Assembly: GCF_006345805.1 (NCBI RefSeq)
Contig: NW_021834909.1
Coordinates: 1-44,683 of the forward strand
DNA: 44,683 nucleotides
Source: Octopus sinensis
Taxonomy: Eukaryota
Direction of reading: 5' to 3'
Within the stretch, counting starts at the first letter, position 1. The number at the start of each line of letters is the position of its first letter. Made by a program: the position numbers and the translations under genes. The notes under the pieces are model-generated. The model saw only the letters and a list, made by a program, of their open reading frames with translations, had not been told where the DNA came from and made no database searches. Below are positions 3,511 through 29,637 of the stretch, piece after piece.

Positions 3511-3649
3511 AATTAGTGGTTTGGAGTTTAACTGCTCTTTCTAGTCAATCAAGTATCCTATTCTTTGGGTATCCCTTTTGAGTTTGTACACTATATTCTT
3601 CTCTGAATATATATATATATATAACACACACATTTATATGCTATTATTC

Positions 3650-4335: not shown

Positions 4336-4411
4336 TATATATATATATATATATATATTAAGATATATATATATATATACATATATATATATGTAATATA
4401 TATATATCACG

Positions 4412-4523
4412 AGATCACGTGACCGACCAGACCATCAGATGTTGTTACACATCGCTGGTCACAATGTGTTCGCATTGTTTTAGCCTTTGAATGACGCCAC
4501 TCCGCTGGCTAAGCGAGCAAGCC
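4412..4523 (-). mobile_element. SINE family B, 3' fragment
   Basis: Near-identical to 497-607. Confidence 0.85.
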
Positions 4524-5331
4524 ATATATATATATATTCTAGCTGATAAAGACGATATCAACTCCATTACCCTGAAGCTAAAATAACTCCAAGAAATATG
4601 CCAATTTTATAACGTAAATTTGATTGCCGAAGATAGGATACCTTTCGCAGCTCATACACGTGTGATGGTAAATTACGAAAAATTCTTAGTGAACCTAATT
4701 TATGACATCTCCCTTACAATATGTTTGGCTCAGTATATCATTTGAAACTTTACAAGAAGAAATGAAGACAATTTTCTACAAAACCTTTTCATAACATCTT
4801 ATGTATTAGGTAGAGAGGCTCCCTCGTTGACTGACAGCGCTACCACAGCGATAATGTATTTACCCTATAACAGTACATACATAATCACTTCCATGTATCA
4901 TATCATCAAACACCACAGGAGAGGTTAAAAATTACGGACCACGTCTACATAACCTCAACCCCTCGGGACATGCACTTACAACCCTACAACACAGACGTCC
5001 GGGACTAAATGCAGAAAGATATTTAAACTCAATTATTTATTTTACCCCCTATTATCATTCCACTCTACACCCACATCATCCACCTGATCGGTAATTACTA
5101 CATATGTAAATAGTAGAGGCGAACTATCAGTCAAATACACCATTGTACTGTCTTAACATTTTCAGTCACTTAACTTCAGGGGTTTCTTATCAGCAAAGAA
5201 TCTATTTTGAATGTCATTTCAATAAGATAAATGCTAGATTCCTATTGATAGTAAAATGGAAAAATTTGAAAGGTTTTAATTTAGTTTCAGCGTTTTGTCT
5301 TCTGATCTTATTTTACACACTTTGATTTTGT

Positions 5332-6245: not shown

Positions 6246-6511
6246 TGTATATGCATGTATATATATACACTATATATACTATATATACTCTAGATATATG
6301 TAAATATATATATATGTACATATATCAGTTTTTCCGAGAGTGAATATCAGTGCGTGAATGTTCGAATGTGCCTATGTCTGTTCGTCCTCGTTTCATTTGC
6401 GAAAACGTAACGTGGATACTGCTTTGTTCCGCACGCACGTATAAAGAAAGACACGTATATAGTTACATTCACATATACTCACATGCATACAATCATACAT
6501 AAGTGTATATA

Positions 6512-8114
6512 CAGTTGCGGCCAAAATATTCAGAACGGCATTGTTTTCGTCAGAAAAGTAGATATATTTTTTTATCAAAGTTGTTTTATATTCTATAATT
6601 TTCACATACAATAAATACAATATTATGTGTTATTGCCGGAGAATTTGGTGTAATTTTAGAGGATAATACAAAAGTTATGAATGATTTAGTGATTTACTGC
6701 AAAACCCATGGCGACCAAAATGATCAGAACGGTTGCTTTTACTCCGTGTTTTAGTATATTTAACCGGCGAACTCTAATGTTTTGAATTTGTTTACGAGAC
6801 GGTTCGTTTACTAAACATTAGTAAGAATATTTGCAGTGTACTTTGTTAATATAATGCCTCTTACTTCGTTACCAATTCGTCAGCAGATTATTAAGTTTCG
6901 ATGGAAGGATAATTTAAGTATTGGATCTATTGCAAAGATTGTTAACAAGTCAAAAAGTATTGTACACGGTATTCTTAAGGTCTACGATGATTGTGGTTCG
7001 TGTGAAGCAAGAAAGTTTACAGGTAGGCCAAGAAAAAAAGACCAAGAGAAAAGATCGTGCTATGGTAAAATTGGTTAAAAAGGACAGATTTAAAACTGCT
7101 GCTGCTGTTACTCGGAAAATGAGCATTGTATTGAAGAAAACTTTATCTCGAAAAACTGTGTCTCGTCGTTTAGTTGAATATGACCTACAAGCAAGAGCAC
7201 CTGCAGTGAAGCTACTGATCAGCTCCAAGAATAAAAAGTGTCGTCTTACTTTTGCAACCGAACATGTGTTGTGGTCTCAAGAAAAATGGCAAACGGTGCA
7301 TTTCAGTGATGAATCTAACTTTATGTTATTTGGCTCAGATGGGAAGAGGTACGTTCGTAGAAAAGTAGGTGAAAAATTGTTGTCTAAATGCCTTAAGACT
7401 AGTGTTAAATTCGGTGGAGGAAGTGTCATGGTTTGGGGGGTTATATCTGGAGATGGTGTGGGCCCTTTGGTGCGATTACATGAAAAGGCAAATGCAGGAG
7501 TTTATAAACAACTTGTAAAAGATCATGTCTTGCCTGTGCTGAGAAATTCAACTAAGCGACCACCCATAGTCATGCAGGACAATGCCCCATGTCACAAGGC
7601 TAAGGTGGTCATGAACTTCCTCAAGGCTGAAAAGGTTATTGTCATGGATTGGCCTGTTCGAAGCCCACATCTCAATCCTATTGAAAATGTGTGGAATATT
7701 CTAGGAGAACGTTTGAATGCCAGAAATCCTAAAACAACTGAGCAATTATGGAATGCCCTTCAGGAAGAATGGAATAAGATCACCCAGCAAGAAATTGAAA
7801 ATTTAGTTTCCTCATGCAGTCGAAGATGTCAGAGTGTGATTGAAGCTAAAGGGCTTCACACTAAATATTAAATAATTCCAGTATTCTCTGTCATTTTTGA
7901 TTACTTTGTTATTTTTTCAACCGTTCTGATCATTTTGGCCGCCATAGGTTTTGCAGAAAATCCCTAAATCATCCATAACTTTTGTATTATCCTCTCAAAT
8001 TAGACCAAAATCTCAGACAATAACAATTTATAAAATATAAAACTACTTTGATAAAAAGTTATACCTACTTTTCTGACGAAAACAATGCCGTTCTGAACAT
8101 TTTGGCCGCAACTG
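6512..8114 (+). mobile_element. Tc1-family DNA transposon, full length (~1.6 kb)
   Basis: TA|CAGTTGCGGCCAAAAT...ATTTTGGCCGCAACTG|TA, with a TA target duplication, long TIRs (6512-6734, 7919-8114) and an internal transposase. Confidence 0.97.
6854..7871 (+). pseudogene. Tc1 DD34E transposase with one +1 frameshift (~338 aa if repaired)
   Basis: MPLTSLPIRQQII..GRPRK lies in one frame and shifts in an A7 run near 7033-7039. The next frame has FSDES, GGGSVMVWG, MQDNAPCH-(34 residues between D and E)-SPHLNPIENVW, and ends GLHTKY*. Confidence 0.95.
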
Positions 8115-8159
8115 TATATGTGTGTGGGTGAGTGTGCGCCTATGTTTGTGTGTATTCTT

Positions 8160-12127: not shown

Positions 12128-13048
12128 ATATAATATAACCTATACATATAATATATATGTATGTATATATACATGTGTCGATCTATACTATATTTATAAA
12201 TATATGGATGCAAGATTGGCCATGTGGCGACGAAAAATTGCGATTTCTGCTTTCAACATGACTATTAAATTTTTAAAAAAAGAAATATGTTTTCTCTATA
12301 TTCATTTATGATTTATTATTTTATAATTTTTTCTCCAAATCATTCCGTCATTGATTGATATATGGAAATTTTTGTGAAACAATATACGAAATTTAAATTA
12401 GAATTTGATATTCTTGTATTGTGTTGTTTTTTTATGCTTTGTATTCTGGAACGCTCACATCACACTGGAGCCTGGTTTCTTTAAGTTGTTATTAAGGAAG
12501 TATTTACACTTTACAAAGAAACCTGGTCTTCTGTTTTCTGGCTGAGAATTAATAACAGTGTCCGAGGAAATAACAGGAAAGTTTAGATGTATTGTACGTT
12601 GCCAGAGACGACGACAATATATAAATTTATGCATAAATGGGTATATTTGTATAAATCGTTAGATGAATAAGTAGATTTGTGTATGCATGTATGTATCTGT
12701 ATTTTAGTCTGTATGTAGATGTATGTATGTATGTATGTATGTATGTATGTATGTATCTATCTATCTATCTGTCTATCGATCTATCTATCTATTAATATAT
12801 TATTTATATTCATTACATATAAAGAATAGATAGACAAACATCACATACATTTAAATGTATGTACATATATTGTATTTATACATGCATATATACAGACTTG
12901 CATACATGCATATAAATGTATATATGTGTGTTTACATTTATTTATGTTTTTCGTATACAAATATACATACAACCATATGTATACACACACACATACACAC
13001 CTATAAATATATATATATAGAGATAGATAGATAGATAGATAGATAGGT

Positions 13049-13082
<34 letters not shown>

Positions 13083-13129
13083 GTATGTATATATATATGT
13101 ATAAATATATATATTTATCCATATATATA

Positions 13130-14704
13130 AAACCGGCCTGCAAGGGTGGAGCCGTGGTGGTGTGACGCACGGACATCTACAATGCTGAAGCTCTCCGCCA
13201 ACTTCAAGACACCTCATTCTTCTGCACTCTGCCCTTCAACCCCACGCTTACCTACCATCAGACGGTGTCCTCCTTTGTCCATGACCCCATCTCTTGCTCC
13301 CGTCTCCATCCCGCCGTATGCAACGTCATTGTTCCCCCTCCTCGCACCTCCACCATTTGCTTACCTCCCCAAATCCACAAACACAACAACCCTGGTCGCT
13401 CCATCGTCCCTGCTTGTAACTGTCCCACGGAGCTTATCTCTCAATACCTCGATCGTGTCCTTACCCCACTACTGGTTTCCCTCCTATCACACATCCATAA
13501 CACTGACCATGCTCTTCGTCTGCTTCTTCTTCCCTCCTGGTCTCTGTAAACTCTTCTTCACTCTTGATATCGAGAGTCTATATACGGTGTCCCCACACCA
13601 CGAAGGACTTCTTGCCCTCAAACGTTTCCTAGACCTTTGACCCAACCCCAAACATGACACGTCCACAATTTTTCCTCTGGCCGAACTTGTTCTCTCTCTC
13701 AACAGCTTCTTGTTCGCGAGGGAGTTTTACAAACATTTCTCGGGAGTGTCCATGGGAACGAGAACGGGGCCCAACTATGCTATGCGGACCTGTTCGCTGG
13801 CTACGTTGAAGCCCAAATATTTTGAAGATTCACTGGTCCCACTCCCAAACTATAGGGTCTTTATATTCATGCCTGTATCGGTTCGCAAACAACTAGTCTC
13901 CTTCCTCTCTTTTTTCAAATCCTTCCATCCTGCCCTCGAATTCCCCTACACCATTTCCAACACTTCCGTCGCCTTTCTCGACATTTCGGTCAACATACAC
14001 AACTTCACACTCACTATCTCCATCCACTACAAATACAGTGACTTACACTCATACCTCAACTTCTCCTTCTCTTCCATTACTCAAACCAAGCCCTCCATCC
14101 CCCACTCCTCATTCACCCGTCTGCGCAGGATCTACAGTGACAACCATAAATTCGAGACTCGGTCTCAACTCATGGCTCGCCACTTCATTCTTCGTGGCTA
14201 TCCTCTCACCACTAACCACACCGCCCTCGCCAGAGCACGTTCCTCTGGCCTCTCCACTCGCACTTGCCCCGCCGTTTCTCGTTTCCCGTTTCCAGCTACC
14301 AATCATCCTTACCTACCACTCATCCACCTTGCCTCTCCAACGCATTAATCTCCGAGCCTTCCGACGACTCAACTCCGACAAATCTAATTCGCACATCTCT
14401 CCCGACCTACCCCTCCCATCTGTAAACGAGCCCACAACCTACGTGACCACATGGTCCACAATTTCTTCCCTAACCCCACCTCCCGACCTTTCTCGTTTCC
14501 CTGCTCCCGCCACGGTGTCCCACTTATCCCTACCGCTCCAACACCACCAATCTCACAGGTACCCATCATAACACTGACTCCTATACAGGCACTTCTAGCA
14601 ACATCATTTACTGCACCTTCTGCACTTTCTGTCCTCTCTACATCGGTCAAACACCTGCTTCGTCTTTTCATACACCTGGCTTCGTCTTTTGTTTTTTCTG
14701 CAAA

Positions 14705-14706
<2 letters not shown>
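13130..14706 (+). mobile_element. Penelope-like retroelement, 5'-truncated, decayed RT + GIY-YIG
   Basis: Motifs across frames: KPACKGGAVVV, PQIHKHNNPGRSIV..CNCPTELISQYLD, FTLDIESLYT, GVSMGTRTGPNYA, FLDISV, IHYK.SDLHSYLNF, SIPHS.FTRLRRIYSD, RGYP, SNIIYC..C..CPLYIGQT. Flanked by (TA)n. Confidence 0.95.
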
Positions 14707-14748
<42 letters not shown>

Positions 14749-14749
14749 A

Positions 14750-15136
14750 TTCTTCTATTCTTTTACTTGCTTCAGTCATTTTACTGGAGCCATGCAGGGG
14801 CACCGCCTTTAGTCGTAGAAATCGACCCAGAACTTATTCTTTGTTATTCTTTGTAAGCCTACTACTTATCCTATCGGTTTATTTTTGCTGAACCGCTAGT
14901 TTACAGGGACGTAAACACTCCAAAATCGGTTGTCAATCGATGGTGGAGGGATAAAGACAGACAGAGACACAGACATATATGCATATATACATATATACAA
15001 CGGGCTTCTTTTAGTTTCCGTCTGCCAATTCCACTCACAAGGCTTTGGTCAGCCCAAGGTGTCACACAGTCGAAATGTACCCTGAACCATGTGGTTGGTA
15101 AGCAAGCTTCTTACCACACAGCCGTGCTGCGCCTAT
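14750..15136 (-). mobile_element. SINE family A
   Basis: Same motifs, with a small internal deletion. Confidence 0.88.
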
Positions 15137-23669: not shown

Positions 23670-23722
<53 letters not shown>

Positions 23723-23728
23723 TATATT

Positions 23729-26700
23729 AAAAGGGCTTAGTAAAATAAATTACTTTGCCGCATACTGACTCATTAGAAATAGCAGCTAAAAAACTTTTTT
23801 AAAGCTATTTCTAATACTTAAGAAAATCTCTCTCTATATAGTGTTTGCTTAATTCAACTCACAAAAGTTTGGCGGTAAGGACATCGAAAAATCAAATGCT
23901 AAGGCTATTTGAGAACGTACGTTTCAAGATTAGTCAAAACAACACTTCTATCATCAGCTCAGAAATTCCTTGGTTTGGATTTGGAACACTGAAAATAAGA
24001 ACACCCTTTCGAAGATCTGCTCGTAACTAACAGTGCCAACAAATTCAAATAAGCAAGCGAAGAATCTCTGTTCTCCCCTTTTCCACCACGTGGGTTAAAA
24101 TCATCAAACACTATGCTTATTTCGTTCGTAAATCCGAAGCATTAATCAGAGGGAGATTAATTATAATTTCAACAATTGAGGGCAAAATTAATTAATTATT
24201 AATCAATTTCACCAGTGTTCAGTATGCAAGGGACCATTCAAGGCGAATTCAAATTATTACATTATATAAAAGGGCTTAGTAAAATAAATTACTTGCCGCA
24301 TACTGAACTCATTAGAAATAGCAGCTAAAAACTTTTTTAAAGCTTTTCAATACTTAAAGAAAATCTCTCTCATATATAGTGTTGCTTAATTCAACTCACA
24401 AAAGTTTGGGGGTAAGGACATCGAAAAATCAAATGCTAAGGTTATTTGAGAACGTACTTTTCAAGATTAGTCAAAACAACACTTCTATCATCAGCTCAAA
24501 ATTCCCTTGGTTTGGATTTGGAAACACTGAAAATAAGAACATACCCTTTCGAAGATCTGCTCGTAACTAACAGTGCCAACAAATTCAATAAGCAAGCGAA
24601 GAATCTCTGTTCTCCCCTTTCCACCAGCGTGGTTAAAATCATCAAACACTATGCTTATTTCGGTAAAATCCGAAGCATTATCAGAGGGAGATTAATTATA
24701 TTTCAACAATTGAGGGCAAAATTAATTATTATTATCAATTTCACCAAGTGTTCAGTATGCAAAGGGACCATTCAAGGCGAATTCAAATTATTACATTATA
24801 TAAAAGGGCTTAGTAAAATAAATTACTTTGCCGCATACTGAACTCATTAGAATAGCAGCTAAAAACTTTTTTAAAGCTATTTCTAATACTTAAAGAAAAT
24901 CTCTCTCATATATAGTTTTGCTAATTCAACTCACAAAAGTTTGGGGGTAAGGACATCGAAAAATTCTAAGGTTATTTGAGAACGTACGTTTCAAGATTAG
25001 TCAAAACAACACTTCTATCATCAGCTCAGAAATTCCTTGGTTTGGATTTGGAAACACTGAAAATAAGAACATACCCTTTCGAAGATCTGCTCGTAACTAA
25101 CATGCCAACAAATTCAAATAAGCAAGCGAAGAATCTCTGTTCTCCCCTTTCCACCAGCGTGGGTTAAAATCATCAAACACTATGCTTATTTCGGTAAAAT
25201 CCGAAGCATTAATCAGAGGGAGATTAATTATAATTTCAACAATTGAGGGCAAAATTAATTAATTATTAATCAATTTCACCAAGTGTTCAGTATGCCAAGG
25301 GACCATTCAAGGCGAATTCAAATTATTACATTATATAAAAGGGCTTAGTAAAATAAATTACTTTGCCGCATACTGAACTCATAGAAATAGCAGCTAAAAA
25401 ACTTTTTTAAAGCTATTTCTAATACTTAAAGAAAATCTCTCTCATATATAGTGTTTGCTTAATTCAACTCACAAAAGTTTGGGTGTAAGGACATCGAAAA
25501 ATCAATGCTAAGGTTATTTGAGAACGTACGTTTCAATTAGTCAAAACAACACTTCTATCATCAGCTCAGAAATTCCTGGTTTGGATTTGGAACACTGAAA
25601 ATAAGAACATACCCTTTCGAAGATCTGCTCGTACTAACAGTGCCAACAAATTCAAATAAGCAAGCGAAGATCTCTGTTCTCTCCTTCCCCTTTCCACCAC
25701 GTGGGTTAAAATCATCAAACACTATGCTTATTTCGGTAAACCGAAGCATTATCAGAGGGAGATTAATTATAATTTCAACAATTGAGGGCAATTAATTAAT
25801 TATTAATCAATTTCACCAAGTGTTCAGTATGCAAAGGGACCATTCAAGGCGAATTCAAATTATTAATTATATAAAAGGGCTTAGTAAAATAAATTACTTT
25901 GCCGCATACTGAACTCATTAGAAATAGCAGCTTAAAACTTTTTTAAAGCTATTTCTAATACTTAAAGAAAATCTCTCTCATATAAGTGTTTGCTTAATTC
26001 AACTCACAAAAGTTTGGGGGTAAGGACATCGAAAAATGCTAAGGTTATTTGAGAACGTACGTTTCAAGATTAGTCAAAACAACACTTCTATCATCACTCA
26101 GAAATTCCTTGGTTTGGATTTGGAAACACTGAAAATAAGAAATACCCTTTCGAAGATCTGCTCGTAACTAACAGTGCCAACAAATTCAAATAAGCAAGCG
26201 AAGATCTCTGTTCTCCCCTTTTCCACCACGTGGGTTAAAATCATCAAACACTATGCTTATTTCGGTAAAATCCGAAGCATAATCAGAGGGAGTTAATTAT
26301 AATTTCAACATTGAGGGCAAAATTAATTAATTATTATCAATTTCACCAAGTGTTCAGTAGCAAAGGGACCATTCAAGGCGAATTCAAATTATTACATTAT
26401 ATAAAAGGGCTAGTAAATAAATTACTTTGCCGCATACTGAACTCATTAGAAATAGCAGCTAAAAAACTTTTTTAAGCTATTTCTAATACTTAAAGAAAAT
26501 CTCTCTCATATATAGTGTTTGCTTAATTCAACTCACAAAAGTTTGGTGTAAGGACATCGAAAAATCAAATGCTAAGGTTATTTGAGAACGTACTTTTCAA
26601 GATTAGTCAAAACAACACTTCTATCATCAGCTCAGAATTCCTTGGTTTGGATTTGGAAACACTGAAAATAAGAACATACCCTTTCGAAGATCTGCTCGTA

Positions 26701-28575
26701 ACTAACAGTGCCAACAAATTCAAATAAGCAAGCGAAGAATCTCTGTTCTCCTCCCCTTTCCACCAGCGTGGGTTAAAATCATCAAACACTATGCTTATTT
26801 CGGTAAAATCCGAAGCATTAATCAGAGGGAGATTAATTATAATTTCAACAATTGAGGGCAAAATTATTAATTATTAATCATTTCACCAAGTGTTCAGTAT
26901 GCAAAGGGACCATTCAAGGCGAATTCAATTATTACATTATATAAAAGGGCTTAGTAAAATAAATTACTTTGCCGCATACTGAACTCATTAGAAATAGCAG
27001 CTAAAAAACTTTTTTAAAGCTATTTCTAATACTTAAAGAAAATCTCTCTCATATATAGTGTTTGCTTAATTCAACTCACAAAAGTTTGGGGTAAGGACAT
27101 CGAAAAATGCTAAGGTTATTTGAGAACGTACGTTTCAAGATTAGTAAAACAACACTTCTATCATCAGCTCAGAATTCCTTGGTTTGGATTTGGAAACACT
27201 GAAAATAAGAACATACCCTTTCGAAGATCTGCTCGTAACTAACAGTGCCAAAAAATTCAAATAAGCAAGCGAAGAATCTCTGTTCTCCCCTTCCACCAGC
27301 GTGGGTTAAAATCATCAAACACTATGCTTATTTCGGTAAAATCCGAAGCATTAATCAGAGGGAGATTAATTATATTTCAACAATTGAGGGAAAATTAATT
27401 AATTATTAATCATTTCACCAAGTGTTCAGTATGCAAAGGGACCATTCAAGGCGAATTCAAATTATTACATATATAAAAGGCTTAGTAAAATAAATTACTT
27501 TGCCGCATACTGAACTCATTAGAAATATGCAGCTAAAAACTTTTTTAAAGCTATTTCTAATACTTAAAGAAAATCTCTCTCATATATAGTGTTTGCTTAA
27601 TTCAACTCACAAAAGTTTGGGGTAAGGACATCGAAAAATCAAATGCTAAGGTTATTTGAGAACGTACGTTTCAAGATTAGTCAAAACAACACTTCTAATC
27701 ATCAGCTCAAAATTCTTGGTTTTGATTTGGAACACTGAAAATAAGAACATACCCTTTCGAAGATCTGCTCGTAACTACAGTGCCACAAATTCAATAAGCA
27801 AGCGAAGAATCTCTGTTCTCCCCTTTCCACCAGCGTGGTTAAAATCATCAAACACTATGCTTATTTCGGTAAAATCCGAAGCATTAATCAGAGGGAGATT
27901 AATTATAATTTCAACAATTGAGGCAAAATTAATTAATTATTAATCAATTTCACCAAGTGTTCAGTATGCAAGGGACCATTCAAGGCGAATTCAAATTATT
28001 ACATTATATAAAAGGGCTTAGTAAAATAAATTACTTTGCCGCATACTGAACTCATTAGAAATAGCAGCTAAAAACTTTTTTAAAGCTATTCTAATACTTA
28101 AAGAAAATCTCTCTCATATATAGTGTTTGCTTAATTCAACTCACAAAAGTTTGGGGTAAGGACATCGAAAAATGCTAAGGTTATTTGAGAACGTACGTTT
28201 CAAGATTAGTCAAAACAACACTTCTATCATCAGCTCAGAAATTCCTTGGTTTGGATTTGGAAACCTGAAAATAAGAACATACCCTTTCGAAGATCTGCTC
28301 GTAACTAACAGTGCCAACAAATTCAAATAAGCAAGCGAAGAATCTCTGTTCTCCCCTTTCCACCCTCGTGGGGTTAAAATCATCAACACTATGCTTATTT
28401 CGGTAAAATCCGAAGCATTAATCAGAGGGAGATTAATTATAATTTCAACAATTGAGGGCAAAATTAATTAATTATTAATCAATTTCACCAAGTGTTCAGT
28501 ATGCAAAGGGACCATTCAAGGCGAATTCAAATTATTACATTATATAAAAGGGCTTAGTAAAATAAATTACTTTGC
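23729..28575 (-). repeat. Tandem array, 9 full copies of a ~535-bp hammerhead-containing unit
   Basis: Unit starts (aaaagggcttag) at about 23729, 24268, 24802, 25337, 25873, 26403, 26943, 27475 and 28010, with a 30-bp partial at 28546. Strand is the hammerhead sense. Confidence 0.98.
23910..23961 (-). ncRNA. Type I hammerhead ribozyme, unit 1 (also at ~24447, 24977, 25519, 26050, 26583, 27121, 27657, 28186)
   Basis: UGAG-CUGAUGA-U-AGA..UCU-U-GAAAC-GUAC-GUU-CUCA. Stem I extends via AAGG/CCUU. Confidence 0.75.
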
Positions 28576-28673
28576 TTGCTTATTTGAATTTGTTGGCACT
28601 GTTAGTTACGAGCAGATCTTCGAAAGGGTATGTTCTTATTTTCAGTGTTTCCAAATCCAAACCAAGGAATTTC

Positions 28674-28725
28674 TGAGCTGATGATAGAAGTGTTGTTTTG
28701 ACTAATCTTGAAACGTACGTTCTCA
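28674..28725 (+). ncRNA. Type I hammerhead ribozyme (inverted block, copy 1)
   Basis: tgagctgatgatagaagtgttgttttgactaatcttgaaacgtacgttctca read directly. Confidence 0.75.
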
Positions 28726-29217
28726 AATAACCTTAGCATTTGATTTTTCGATGTCCTTACCCCCAAACTTTTGTGAGTTGAATTAAGCAAACACTATATA
28801 TGAGAGAGATTTTCTTTAAGTATTAGAAATAGCTTTAAAAAAGTTTTTTAGCTGCTATTTCTAATGAGTTCAGTATGGCGGCAAAGTAATTTATTTTACT
28901 AAGCCCTTTTATATAATGTAATAATTTGAATTCGCCTGAATGGTCCCTTTGCATACTGAACACTTGGTGAAATTGATTAATAATTAATTAAATTTGCCCT
29001 CAATTGTTGAATTATAATTAATCTCCCTCTGATTAATGCTTCGGATTTTACCGAAATAAGCATAGTGTTTGATGATTTTAACCCACGCTGGTGGAAAGGG
29101 GAGAACAGAGATTCTTCGCTTGCTTATTTGAATTTGTTGGCACTGTTAGTTACGAGCAGATCTTCGAAAGGGTATGTTCTTATTTTCAGTGTTTCCAAAT
29201 CCACACCAAGGAATTTC

Positions 29218-29269
29218 TGAGCTGATGATAGAAGTGTTGTTTTGACTAATCTTGAAACGTACGTTCTCA
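29218..29269 (+). ncRNA. Type I hammerhead ribozyme (inverted block, copy 2)
   Basis: Same sequence as 28674-28725. Confidence 0.75.
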
Positions 29270-29553
29270 AATACCTTAGCATTTGATTTTTCGATGTCCT
29301 TACCCCCAAACTTTTGTGAGTTGAATTAAGCAACACTATATATGAGAGAGATTTTCTTTAAGTATTAGAATAGCTTTAAAAAAGTTTTTTAGCTGCTATT
29401 TCTAATGAGTTCAGTATGCGGCAAAGTAATTTATTTTACTAAGCCCTTTTATATAATGTAATAATTTGAATTCGCCTTGAATGGTCCCTTTGCATACTGA
29501 ACACTTGGTGAAATTGATTAATATTAATTAATTTTGCCCTCAATTGTTGAAAT

Positions 29554-29584
<31 letters not shown>

Positions 29585-29637
29585 TATGCAATTGCTAAAA
29601 AAACATTCGTGAAGTAAAATCATGTAGCAACACCAAA

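Follow-up and report, generated by a model that had tools for sequence, protein, structure and literature searches.

Non-LTR retrozymes have been described in metazoan genomes, with units of 170-400 nt in the available portions of Cervera and de la Pena 2020 (PMC7229834), and the available portions of a preprint give a retrozyme unit range of 51-972 bp (10.64898/2026.07.22.740005; Li et al. 2026). As their mobiliser, Penelope-like elements have only been proposed, and in the same portions of both sources the choice between rolling-circle copying and local amplification is unsettled. Type I hammerheads that cleave as dimers in tandem repeats have been known since 1988. Double hammerheads with a palindromic helix III have been described in newt, avocado sunblotch viroid, axolotl and Penelope motifs, and a helix III of this kind is reported to be common among repeat-associated hammerheads. 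Among invertebrate retrozymes, most hammerheads are reported to be efficient already as monomers. As a monomer, the axolotl hammerhead HHR_Amex2 was 22% cleaved within 1 h, and its dimer did far better (PMC7229834), and the minimal Penelope hammerheads cleave poorly even as dimers (PMC4209133, PMC6765202). A paper on the repeats of Octopus vulgaris lists Penelope families with recent activity, and ribozymes go unmentioned in its main text. Among the best literature matches outside subscription journals, no cephalopod retrozyme or twin-primed retrozyme array was described.

Here, a stretch of 44,683 nucleotides from Octopus sinensis (contig NW_021834909.1, forward strand; hereafter the window) was analysed, in which a tandem array with an inverted arm carries a hammerhead motif in its units. 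The locus is read as a non-LTR retrozyme-type element, with a non-coding unit of ~544 nt, a weak type I hammerhead and a proposed cycle of dimer cleavage, at a probability of roughly 0.55. This reading draws on a motif beyond chance, on the fold of the circular unit and on insertion hallmarks that agree with them. The array may be a new element of the known retrozyme class, and published supplements may already list the family.

Array anatomy, coding capacity and surroundings

The nine full units of the main arm and the shorter inverted arm are joined head to head via 2-5 nt of microhomology (Table 1). The unit consensus is 544 bp long with a GC content of 0.33. Folded as a circle, it reached a minimum free energy of -137.6 kcal/mol with 64% of its nucleotides paired, and none of 60 shuffles was as stable (z = -5.7); the circle of the opposite strand gave z = -4.4. 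A strong 44-bp inverted repeat at 23772-23815, repeated in each unit, is one of several long hairpins that stabilise the circle. The unit holds no ORF longer than 45 aa from a methionine. Among the 149 ORFs of at least 60 aa in the window (low-complexity ORFs and units 2-9 omitted), the Pfam search returned neither a reverse transcriptase nor a GIY-YIG domain, and the only credible match was a Tc1-type transposase at 6918-7868. An ORF with both domains between pLTRs, as in an autonomous Penelope-like element, was not found among these ORFs. Neither a further copy of the array unit nor a tRNA gene was found within the window, and relatives of the unit were found neither by a family-specific pattern search of the genome contigs nor in phages and plasmids.

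The units differ from one another by 88 deletions, 16 insertions and 14 substitutions, six of the latter being G to T. Each unit has ~10 differences, most of them deletions of a single base, of which 59 of 78 fall within homopolymer runs. The array region looks poorly polished, with a pattern that we take for uncorrected errors of long reads. Units 3, 5, 7 and 9 (~24965, 26035, 27105 and 28170) share a 5-bp deletion, flanked by short direct repeats, that is absent from unit 1 and from the inverted arm. By arithmetic, such spacing has a chance of 3 in 126. A two-unit higher-order repeat was rejected by permutation (p = 0.26, or 0.68 with the 5-bp indel left out). The alternation is unexplained, with reverse transcriptase slippage, a dimeric template or read error as options.

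Elsewhere, the window contains a Tc1/mariner-type element (6507-8119), which is flanked by inverted repeats (6507-6735 and 7918-8119); at 6918-7868, it has HTH and DDE domains in a stop-to-stop frame of 317 aa. SINE-like dispersed repeats with microsatellite tails occur at 3641, 8160, 10128, 14752, 21008 and ~30310, and inverted at 1547; they may resemble Octopus repeats, and a text search for their motif gave no match. Members of a second dispersed family, at least 64 bp long and 69-81% identical, lie at 913, 11047, 18782 and 18965. The window also has a 284-bp two-copy tandem bounded by (TA)n (2329-2959) and a 121-bp duplication with 93% identity (488-608 and 4404-4524). From 13000 to 15000, a GC skew of -0.36 to -0.46 over 2 kb is accompanied by long stop-free frames with no Pfam match, possibly a decayed retroelement.

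Table 1 Positions of the array, its hammerhead features and its flanking repeats within the window
Feature	Position	Strand	Basis
34-bp direct repeat, left copy, in (TA)n; candidate target-site duplication	23692-23725	+	exact repeat
Main arm: 9 full units of 530-540 bp + 29 bp	23730-28575	-	hammerheads on minus strand
Main-arm U17 sites	23914, 24451, 24981, 25523, 26054, 26587, 27125, 27661, 28190	-	scan
Candidate 6-bp pseudoknot: loop II (23938-23943) with 23904-23909	23904-23943	-	pairing scan; suggestive only
Extended imperfect palindrome over G12-A14, U17 and 3' strand of helix I; predicted inactive inter-unit duplex	23909-23927	-	free two-unit fold; duplex -16.8 kcal/mol
Type I hammerhead, unit 1	23910-23961	-	descriptor scan and shuffles, sequence
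Helix III proper: 8-nt palindrome; 2 bp + GUAC loop in the monomer, 8-bp duplex between units	23915-23922	-	descriptor scan, duplex and hairpin energies
Helix II and loop II: marginal, ~-0.5 kcal/mol; loop II alternatively pairs with G12-U17 (blocking hairpin)	23926-23950	-	folding
Unit 2 allele, C15.2 to A	24458	-	unit alignment and scan
Unit 6 allele, C15.2 to A	26594	-	unit alignment and scan
Inverted arm: ~1.8 units; U17 at 28721 and 29265	28574-29557	+	
34-bp direct repeat, right copy; candidate target-site duplication	29554-29587	+	exact repeat

Hammerhead motif and its modelled pairing between units

In unit 1, the motif runs through a 4-bp helix I (23958-23961 paired with 23910-23913), CUGAUGA, a 25-nt helix II region, GAAA and helix III. 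With C3 at 23957, G12 at 23925 and U17 at 23914, cleavage is predicted after GUU, between 23914 and 23913 on the minus strand; GUU sites are slower than GUC sites. The CUGANGA and GAAA boxes, the A15.1-U16.1 pair, the NUH site and the open helix I are all those of a type I hammerhead. At the base of helix II, a U10.1-U11.1 mismatch stands in place of a Watson-Crick 10.1-11.1 pair, and helix II is not stable. Both U10.1-U11.1 (PMC3088659) and cleavable GUU triplets (PMC3138052) are known from hammerheads, the former from natural ones. Letters of a Nematostella motif in Fig. S8 of PMC3088659 look similar, in figure text too garbled to be trusted. Two other arrangements were rejected: a GUUC register, read from the sequence, breaks the 15.2-16.2 pair and helix I, and replacement of the U-U pair by a U bulge behind A9 makes the fold worse by 4.4 kcal/mol.

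Both the consensus and 10 of the 11 copies have intact core boxes, and six copies match the descriptor in its proper register; the others are units 2 and 6, with a shared allele, unit 4, which is without 2 nt of helix II, unit 5, without C3, and unit 8, with an extra U. The descriptor matched 28 of 20000 shuffles, and one of 20000 when a palindromic helix III was included, rates that are optimistic because the descriptor was devised post hoc from the motif and tolerates the mismatch at the helix II base. Rfam gave no hammerhead match, neither over the whole window at the gathering threshold nor within 23700-24850 at E<=10, and no other credible family, with five chance-level matches at E 0.6-7. 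We regard the motif as a real but weak type I hammerhead, predicted from its sequence to cleave. It has a helix III plus a possible extended helix I and is not a minimal ribozyme. The earlier note had taken minimal Penelope and retrozyme hammerheads as efficient double hammerheads, a precedent that fails both on the poor cleavage of such motifs even as dimers (PMC4209133, PMC6765202) and on the anatomy found here.

The earlier note had also described stem III as a perfect 10-nt palindrome with almost no loop. The palindrome itself, AACGTACGTT at 23914-23923, stands and is exact in nine of the 11 copies (seven direct, two inverted). Helix III, however, takes up only eight of its nucleotides, namely two pairs (A15.1-U16.1 and C15.2-G16.2) capped by the tetraloop GUAC; if a third pair, G-C, were added, the loop would shrink to 2 nt. 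At the ends of the 10-mer, an A-U pair joins core A14 to the cleavage nucleotide U17, both of which must be unpaired for catalysis in the established hammerhead numbering. The pairing that lengthens the palindrome to 10 nt thus blocks the core, and this length opposes catalysis. A 10-nt palindrome of any kind was seen in 2807 of 5000 shuffles of the AT-rich unit, which itself holds four, so that its presence per se is unremarkable.

As in double hammerheads, helix III is short, self-complementary and unstable as a hairpin, at a modelled +2.4 kcal/mol versus -9.8 for the 8-bp duplex between units. The states of a two-unit transcript were compared at 37 C as gaps in kcal/mol above the free ensemble, in a folding model that includes neither Mg2+ nor tertiary contacts and is uncalibrated by any assayed hammerhead. 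On this scale, the inter-unit helix III forms almost free (0.1), and the cheapest cleavable state combines it with one core (6.3-10.0). The monomer fold lies at 14.3-15.9 and the full double hammerhead, no cheaper than one monomer core, at 15.8-19.5. The one-core route between units would thus be 5-9 kcal/mol cheaper than the monomer fold in this uncalibrated model. For the natural intact pair of the inverted arm (28578-29365), the corresponding gaps were 9.5-12.0 for one core between units, 16.8-17.6 for the monomer and 21.4 for the full double fold. In the model, all cleavable states lie uphill by 6 kcal/mol or more, and dimerisation leaves the marginal helix II (-0.5) unrepaired. In addition, any palindromic helix III gains in a dimer calculation by construction.

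The free folds bury the core in the monomer, the dimer and the circle alike. In the two-unit transcript, this is a longer duplex that covers G12-A14, U17 and helix I. In a 79-nt cassette, an inactive hairpin of loop II with G12-U17 folds at -13.5 versus -2.0 kcal/mol for the active fold. In the circle, the pair probability of helices I and II is ~0 and that of helix III 0.03. With co-transcriptional truncation, the monomer fold still lay uphill (gaps of 8.2-14.4), and local folds of 58-93 nt were no more stable than those of shuffles (z from -1.0 to +1.3). The blocking hairpin was rejected as a selected off-switch, as 459 of 2000 shuffles, and 301 of 2000 loop-only shuffles, were equally stable.

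Dimer-assisted cleavage is put forward, with slightly better than even confidence, as the likeliest mode for this hammerhead, on the modelled contrast between duplex and hairpin, the cheaper one-core route and the analogy with HHR_Amex2. The cleavage between adjacent units suggested earlier is supported by the model insofar as one core between units is the cheaper state; the inactive duplex dominates, however, and the full double fold brings no saving. The gaps would rather correspond to help from a neighbour, one site at a time, and both this preference and the blocking of the core in the circle are model predictions. A functional requirement for the tandem organisation, also proposed there, does not follow from a dimer mode: two sites are needed to release any retrozyme monomer, which makes the requirement unspecific, and the proposed life cycle produces arrays anyway.

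The substitution said to break the palindrome in units 2 and 6 was confirmed, with gtactttt starting at 24454 and 26590 within variant 10-mers that begin at 24451 and 26587. It breaks the 15.2-16.2 pair next to the core and would impair the monomer as well, so that this allele cannot isolate the effect of the palindrome. The modelled helix III duplex falls from -9.8 (wild type) to -7.1 (mixed) and -4.4 (both mutant), and with the allele in both copies the dimer advantage is gone, the gaps being 14.0-14.4 between units and 12.6-12.9 for the monomer. From the pairing, a wild-type neighbour would under the dimer model still cut the mutant unit's own site. Two identical substitutions are each common to two units, with 0.05 expected under uniform error, and units 2 and 6 have no other variant in common. 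The allele may be a sequencing error; context-biased error and shared descent both fit.

Insertion signature and alternative explanations

The array lies in (TA)n between two copies of a low-complexity 34-bp direct repeat, a candidate target duplication. Of 51 other AT-rich tracts, two contain the same 34-mer and ~8 consist of trinucleotides and are unable to hold it, which makes the match suggestive. Both outer ends of the array are 3' ends of the hammerhead-sense RNA, and each meets (TA)n via TATA microhomology, at different unit positions. The inverted arm carries a 5-bp indel allele that unit 9 is without and is thus not a mirror copy of the adjacent unit. A simple fold-back as the source of the inversion was rejected on this difference in alleles. 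Tandem and inverted arms between 34-bp repeats in (TA)n may represent a Penelope-type, possibly twin-primed signature. Twin priming is a model known from L1 work. We infer that a Penelope-type enzyme acting in trans used such priming to reverse-transcribe a template that was circular or multimeric.

The cycle that we propose borrows its transcription, cleavage, ligation and mobiliser from known families. Read-through transcription of the hammerhead strand would give multimeric RNA, in which the helix III palindromes of two neighbouring units would pair into an 8-bp duplex. Junctions would be peeled singly from the longer inactive duplex, so that the core folds and cuts the GUU of the other unit. 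Two cuts would free a monomer for circularisation by a host ligase, and the circle would be stable, its partner absent and its core held in the hairpin with loop II. Finally, with a Penelope-type reverse transcriptase and endonuclease provided in trans, more than a single unit length would be copied into (TA)n.

That the 5.8-kb array is the footprint of a single such event, a Penelope-catalysed, twin-primed, more-than-unit-length reverse transcription of a template spared by a neighbour-only hammerhead silent in the circle, is a tentative proposal that we rate at somewhat less than even odds. A cut in (TA)n with a 34-bp stagger would provide two 3' ends, both of them priming at UAUA motifs in the hammerhead-sense RNA; of the two cDNAs, one would make ~9 laps and the other ~1.8, before their union by microhomology. 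The template would survive through a hammerhead that cuts only with a neighbour and stays silent in the circle. One monomer circle would leave the 5-bp indel of units 3, 5, 7 and 9 unexplained. If true, the proposal would provide locus-level evidence on the mobiliser of animal retrozymes, with arrays born whole and not by unequal crossover.

Regarding cleavage, the hammerhead could be monomer-active, the 6-bp pseudoknot docking helices I and II and freeing loop II from the blocking hairpin, while the palindrome is the common metazoan helix III. ViennaRNA is unable to score this loop II contact. Its partner strand follows directly after helix I, only nine of the 544 windows of the unit pair as well, and an A-to-G change in unit 1 retains the pair as a wobble; pseudoknots of this kind strongly raise hammerhead activity elsewhere, and coral and mussel retrozymes cleave as monomers (PMC7229834). 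However, the pairing was equalled in 745 of 5000 loop shuffles and its duplex energy of -2.7 reached in 2917 of 5000, a single wobble change does not amount to covariation where the assembly is rich in errors, and the pseudoknot would aid dimer formation too, which leaves monomer activity unlikely. We consider it just as improbable that the element is a retrozyme whose hammerhead is nearly inactive alone, as monomer and dimer, with the extended palindrome as a trap and host factors needed or cleavage rare. Inactivity in vitro is documented for eight of nine Xenopus retrozyme dimers (10.64898/2026.07.22.740005) and for Aedes and Nematostella motifs. At this locus, the extended duplex (-16.8) outweighs helix III (-9.8), the core is buried in the free folds of all three forms, and three weak features come together in the U-U base, the marginal helix II and U17. 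Against such a trap stand the core boxes, intact in nearly all copies, and an apparently recent and RNA-templated insertion, a feature that implies a functional cycle.

Alternatively, unequal crossover at the locus could have expanded a short insertion or a Penelope pLTR into the array, or its inversion could be an assembly error, so that no single retrotransposition event was involved. Local amplification is the model proposed in the preprint (10.64898/2026.07.22.740005). The alternate 5-bp indel and the two substitutions each common to two units would be unexpected from one monomer circle, the assembly is error-rich across the array, and the flanking repeat is of low complexity. Yet TATA microhomology occurs at both outer ends at different unit positions, the 34-mer recurs in only two of the 51 other tracts, the inverted arm does not mirror unit 9, and no higher-order period was detected (p = 0.26); on balance, this origin is rather unlikely. 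An ordinary satellite with a chance hammerhead-like motif would be in line with the lack of an Rfam match and the unexceptional local folds, and is very improbable in view of the rarity of the descriptor among shuffles (28 of 20000), the unit fold (z = -5.7) and insertion hallmarks that agree with a retrozyme.

Comparison with known systems

The locus resembles metazoan non-LTR retrozymes in its tandem non-coding units with one type I hammerhead each, a GC content below 45%, a self-paired circle and the absence of an ORF, and the low-complexity 34-bp repeat is a candidate for their target duplication of more than 4 bp. In contrast, the 544-nt unit exceeds the 170-400 nt of PMC7229834, though it falls inside the 51-972 bp of the preprint. 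Blocking of the hammerhead in the circle, as predicted here, is described in the available portions of PMC7229834 only for some mussel circles, and the covered portions of PMC7229834 and the preprint describe no inverted arm.

For the hammerhead itself, the axolotl HHR_Amex2 appears to be the closest described anatomy, with a helix III of 2 bp plus a tetraloop and a U-U at the base of helix II, a likeness in description. Compared with HHR_Amex2 and newt satellite 2 as described, the octopus motif has no obvious canonical loop 1-loop 2 nucleotides and instead a long U-rich loop II with the candidate pseudoknot, as well as a GUU site whose U17 extends the palindrome. The minimal hammerheads of Penelope pLTRs (PMC4209133) are likewise type I, with a palindromic helix III, a 4-bp helix I by the core and proposed dimer cleavage. 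Most of their helix III is missing, their helix II is 7-8 bp long, they have G10.1-C11.1 and a bulge behind A9, and they flank an ORF for a reverse transcriptase and endonuclease (PMC4209133), whereas here a 2-bp helix III, a weak helix II and U-U at 10.1-11.1 are found with no ORF, which sets the locus apart from that class. Dimer cleavage here would not be new and, if confirmed, would add one more case. The motif is intermediate between the monomer-active invertebrate and the dimer-dependent amphibian types and thereby offers a clean test of the choice of mode.

The main value of the locus lies in its insertion signature rather than in the dimer idea, for the insertion ends bear on the mobiliser question and on rolling-circle copying versus local amplification. 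In this respect, the closest counterparts are Penelope-like insertions (10.1101/2021.04.23.441226; Craig et al.), in which tandem copies have, next to their 5' end, a 5'-truncated copy in inverted orientation, the target is (TA)n as for Naiad, and the ends carry a feature on the scale of 30-40 bp. Differences from them are the absence of a coding body here and, conversely, of hammerheads in Naiads as described in the available portions of the same source, and the 34-bp target direct repeat, which lies on both sides of the octopus array, whereas the Penelope 'tail' is usually found on one end.
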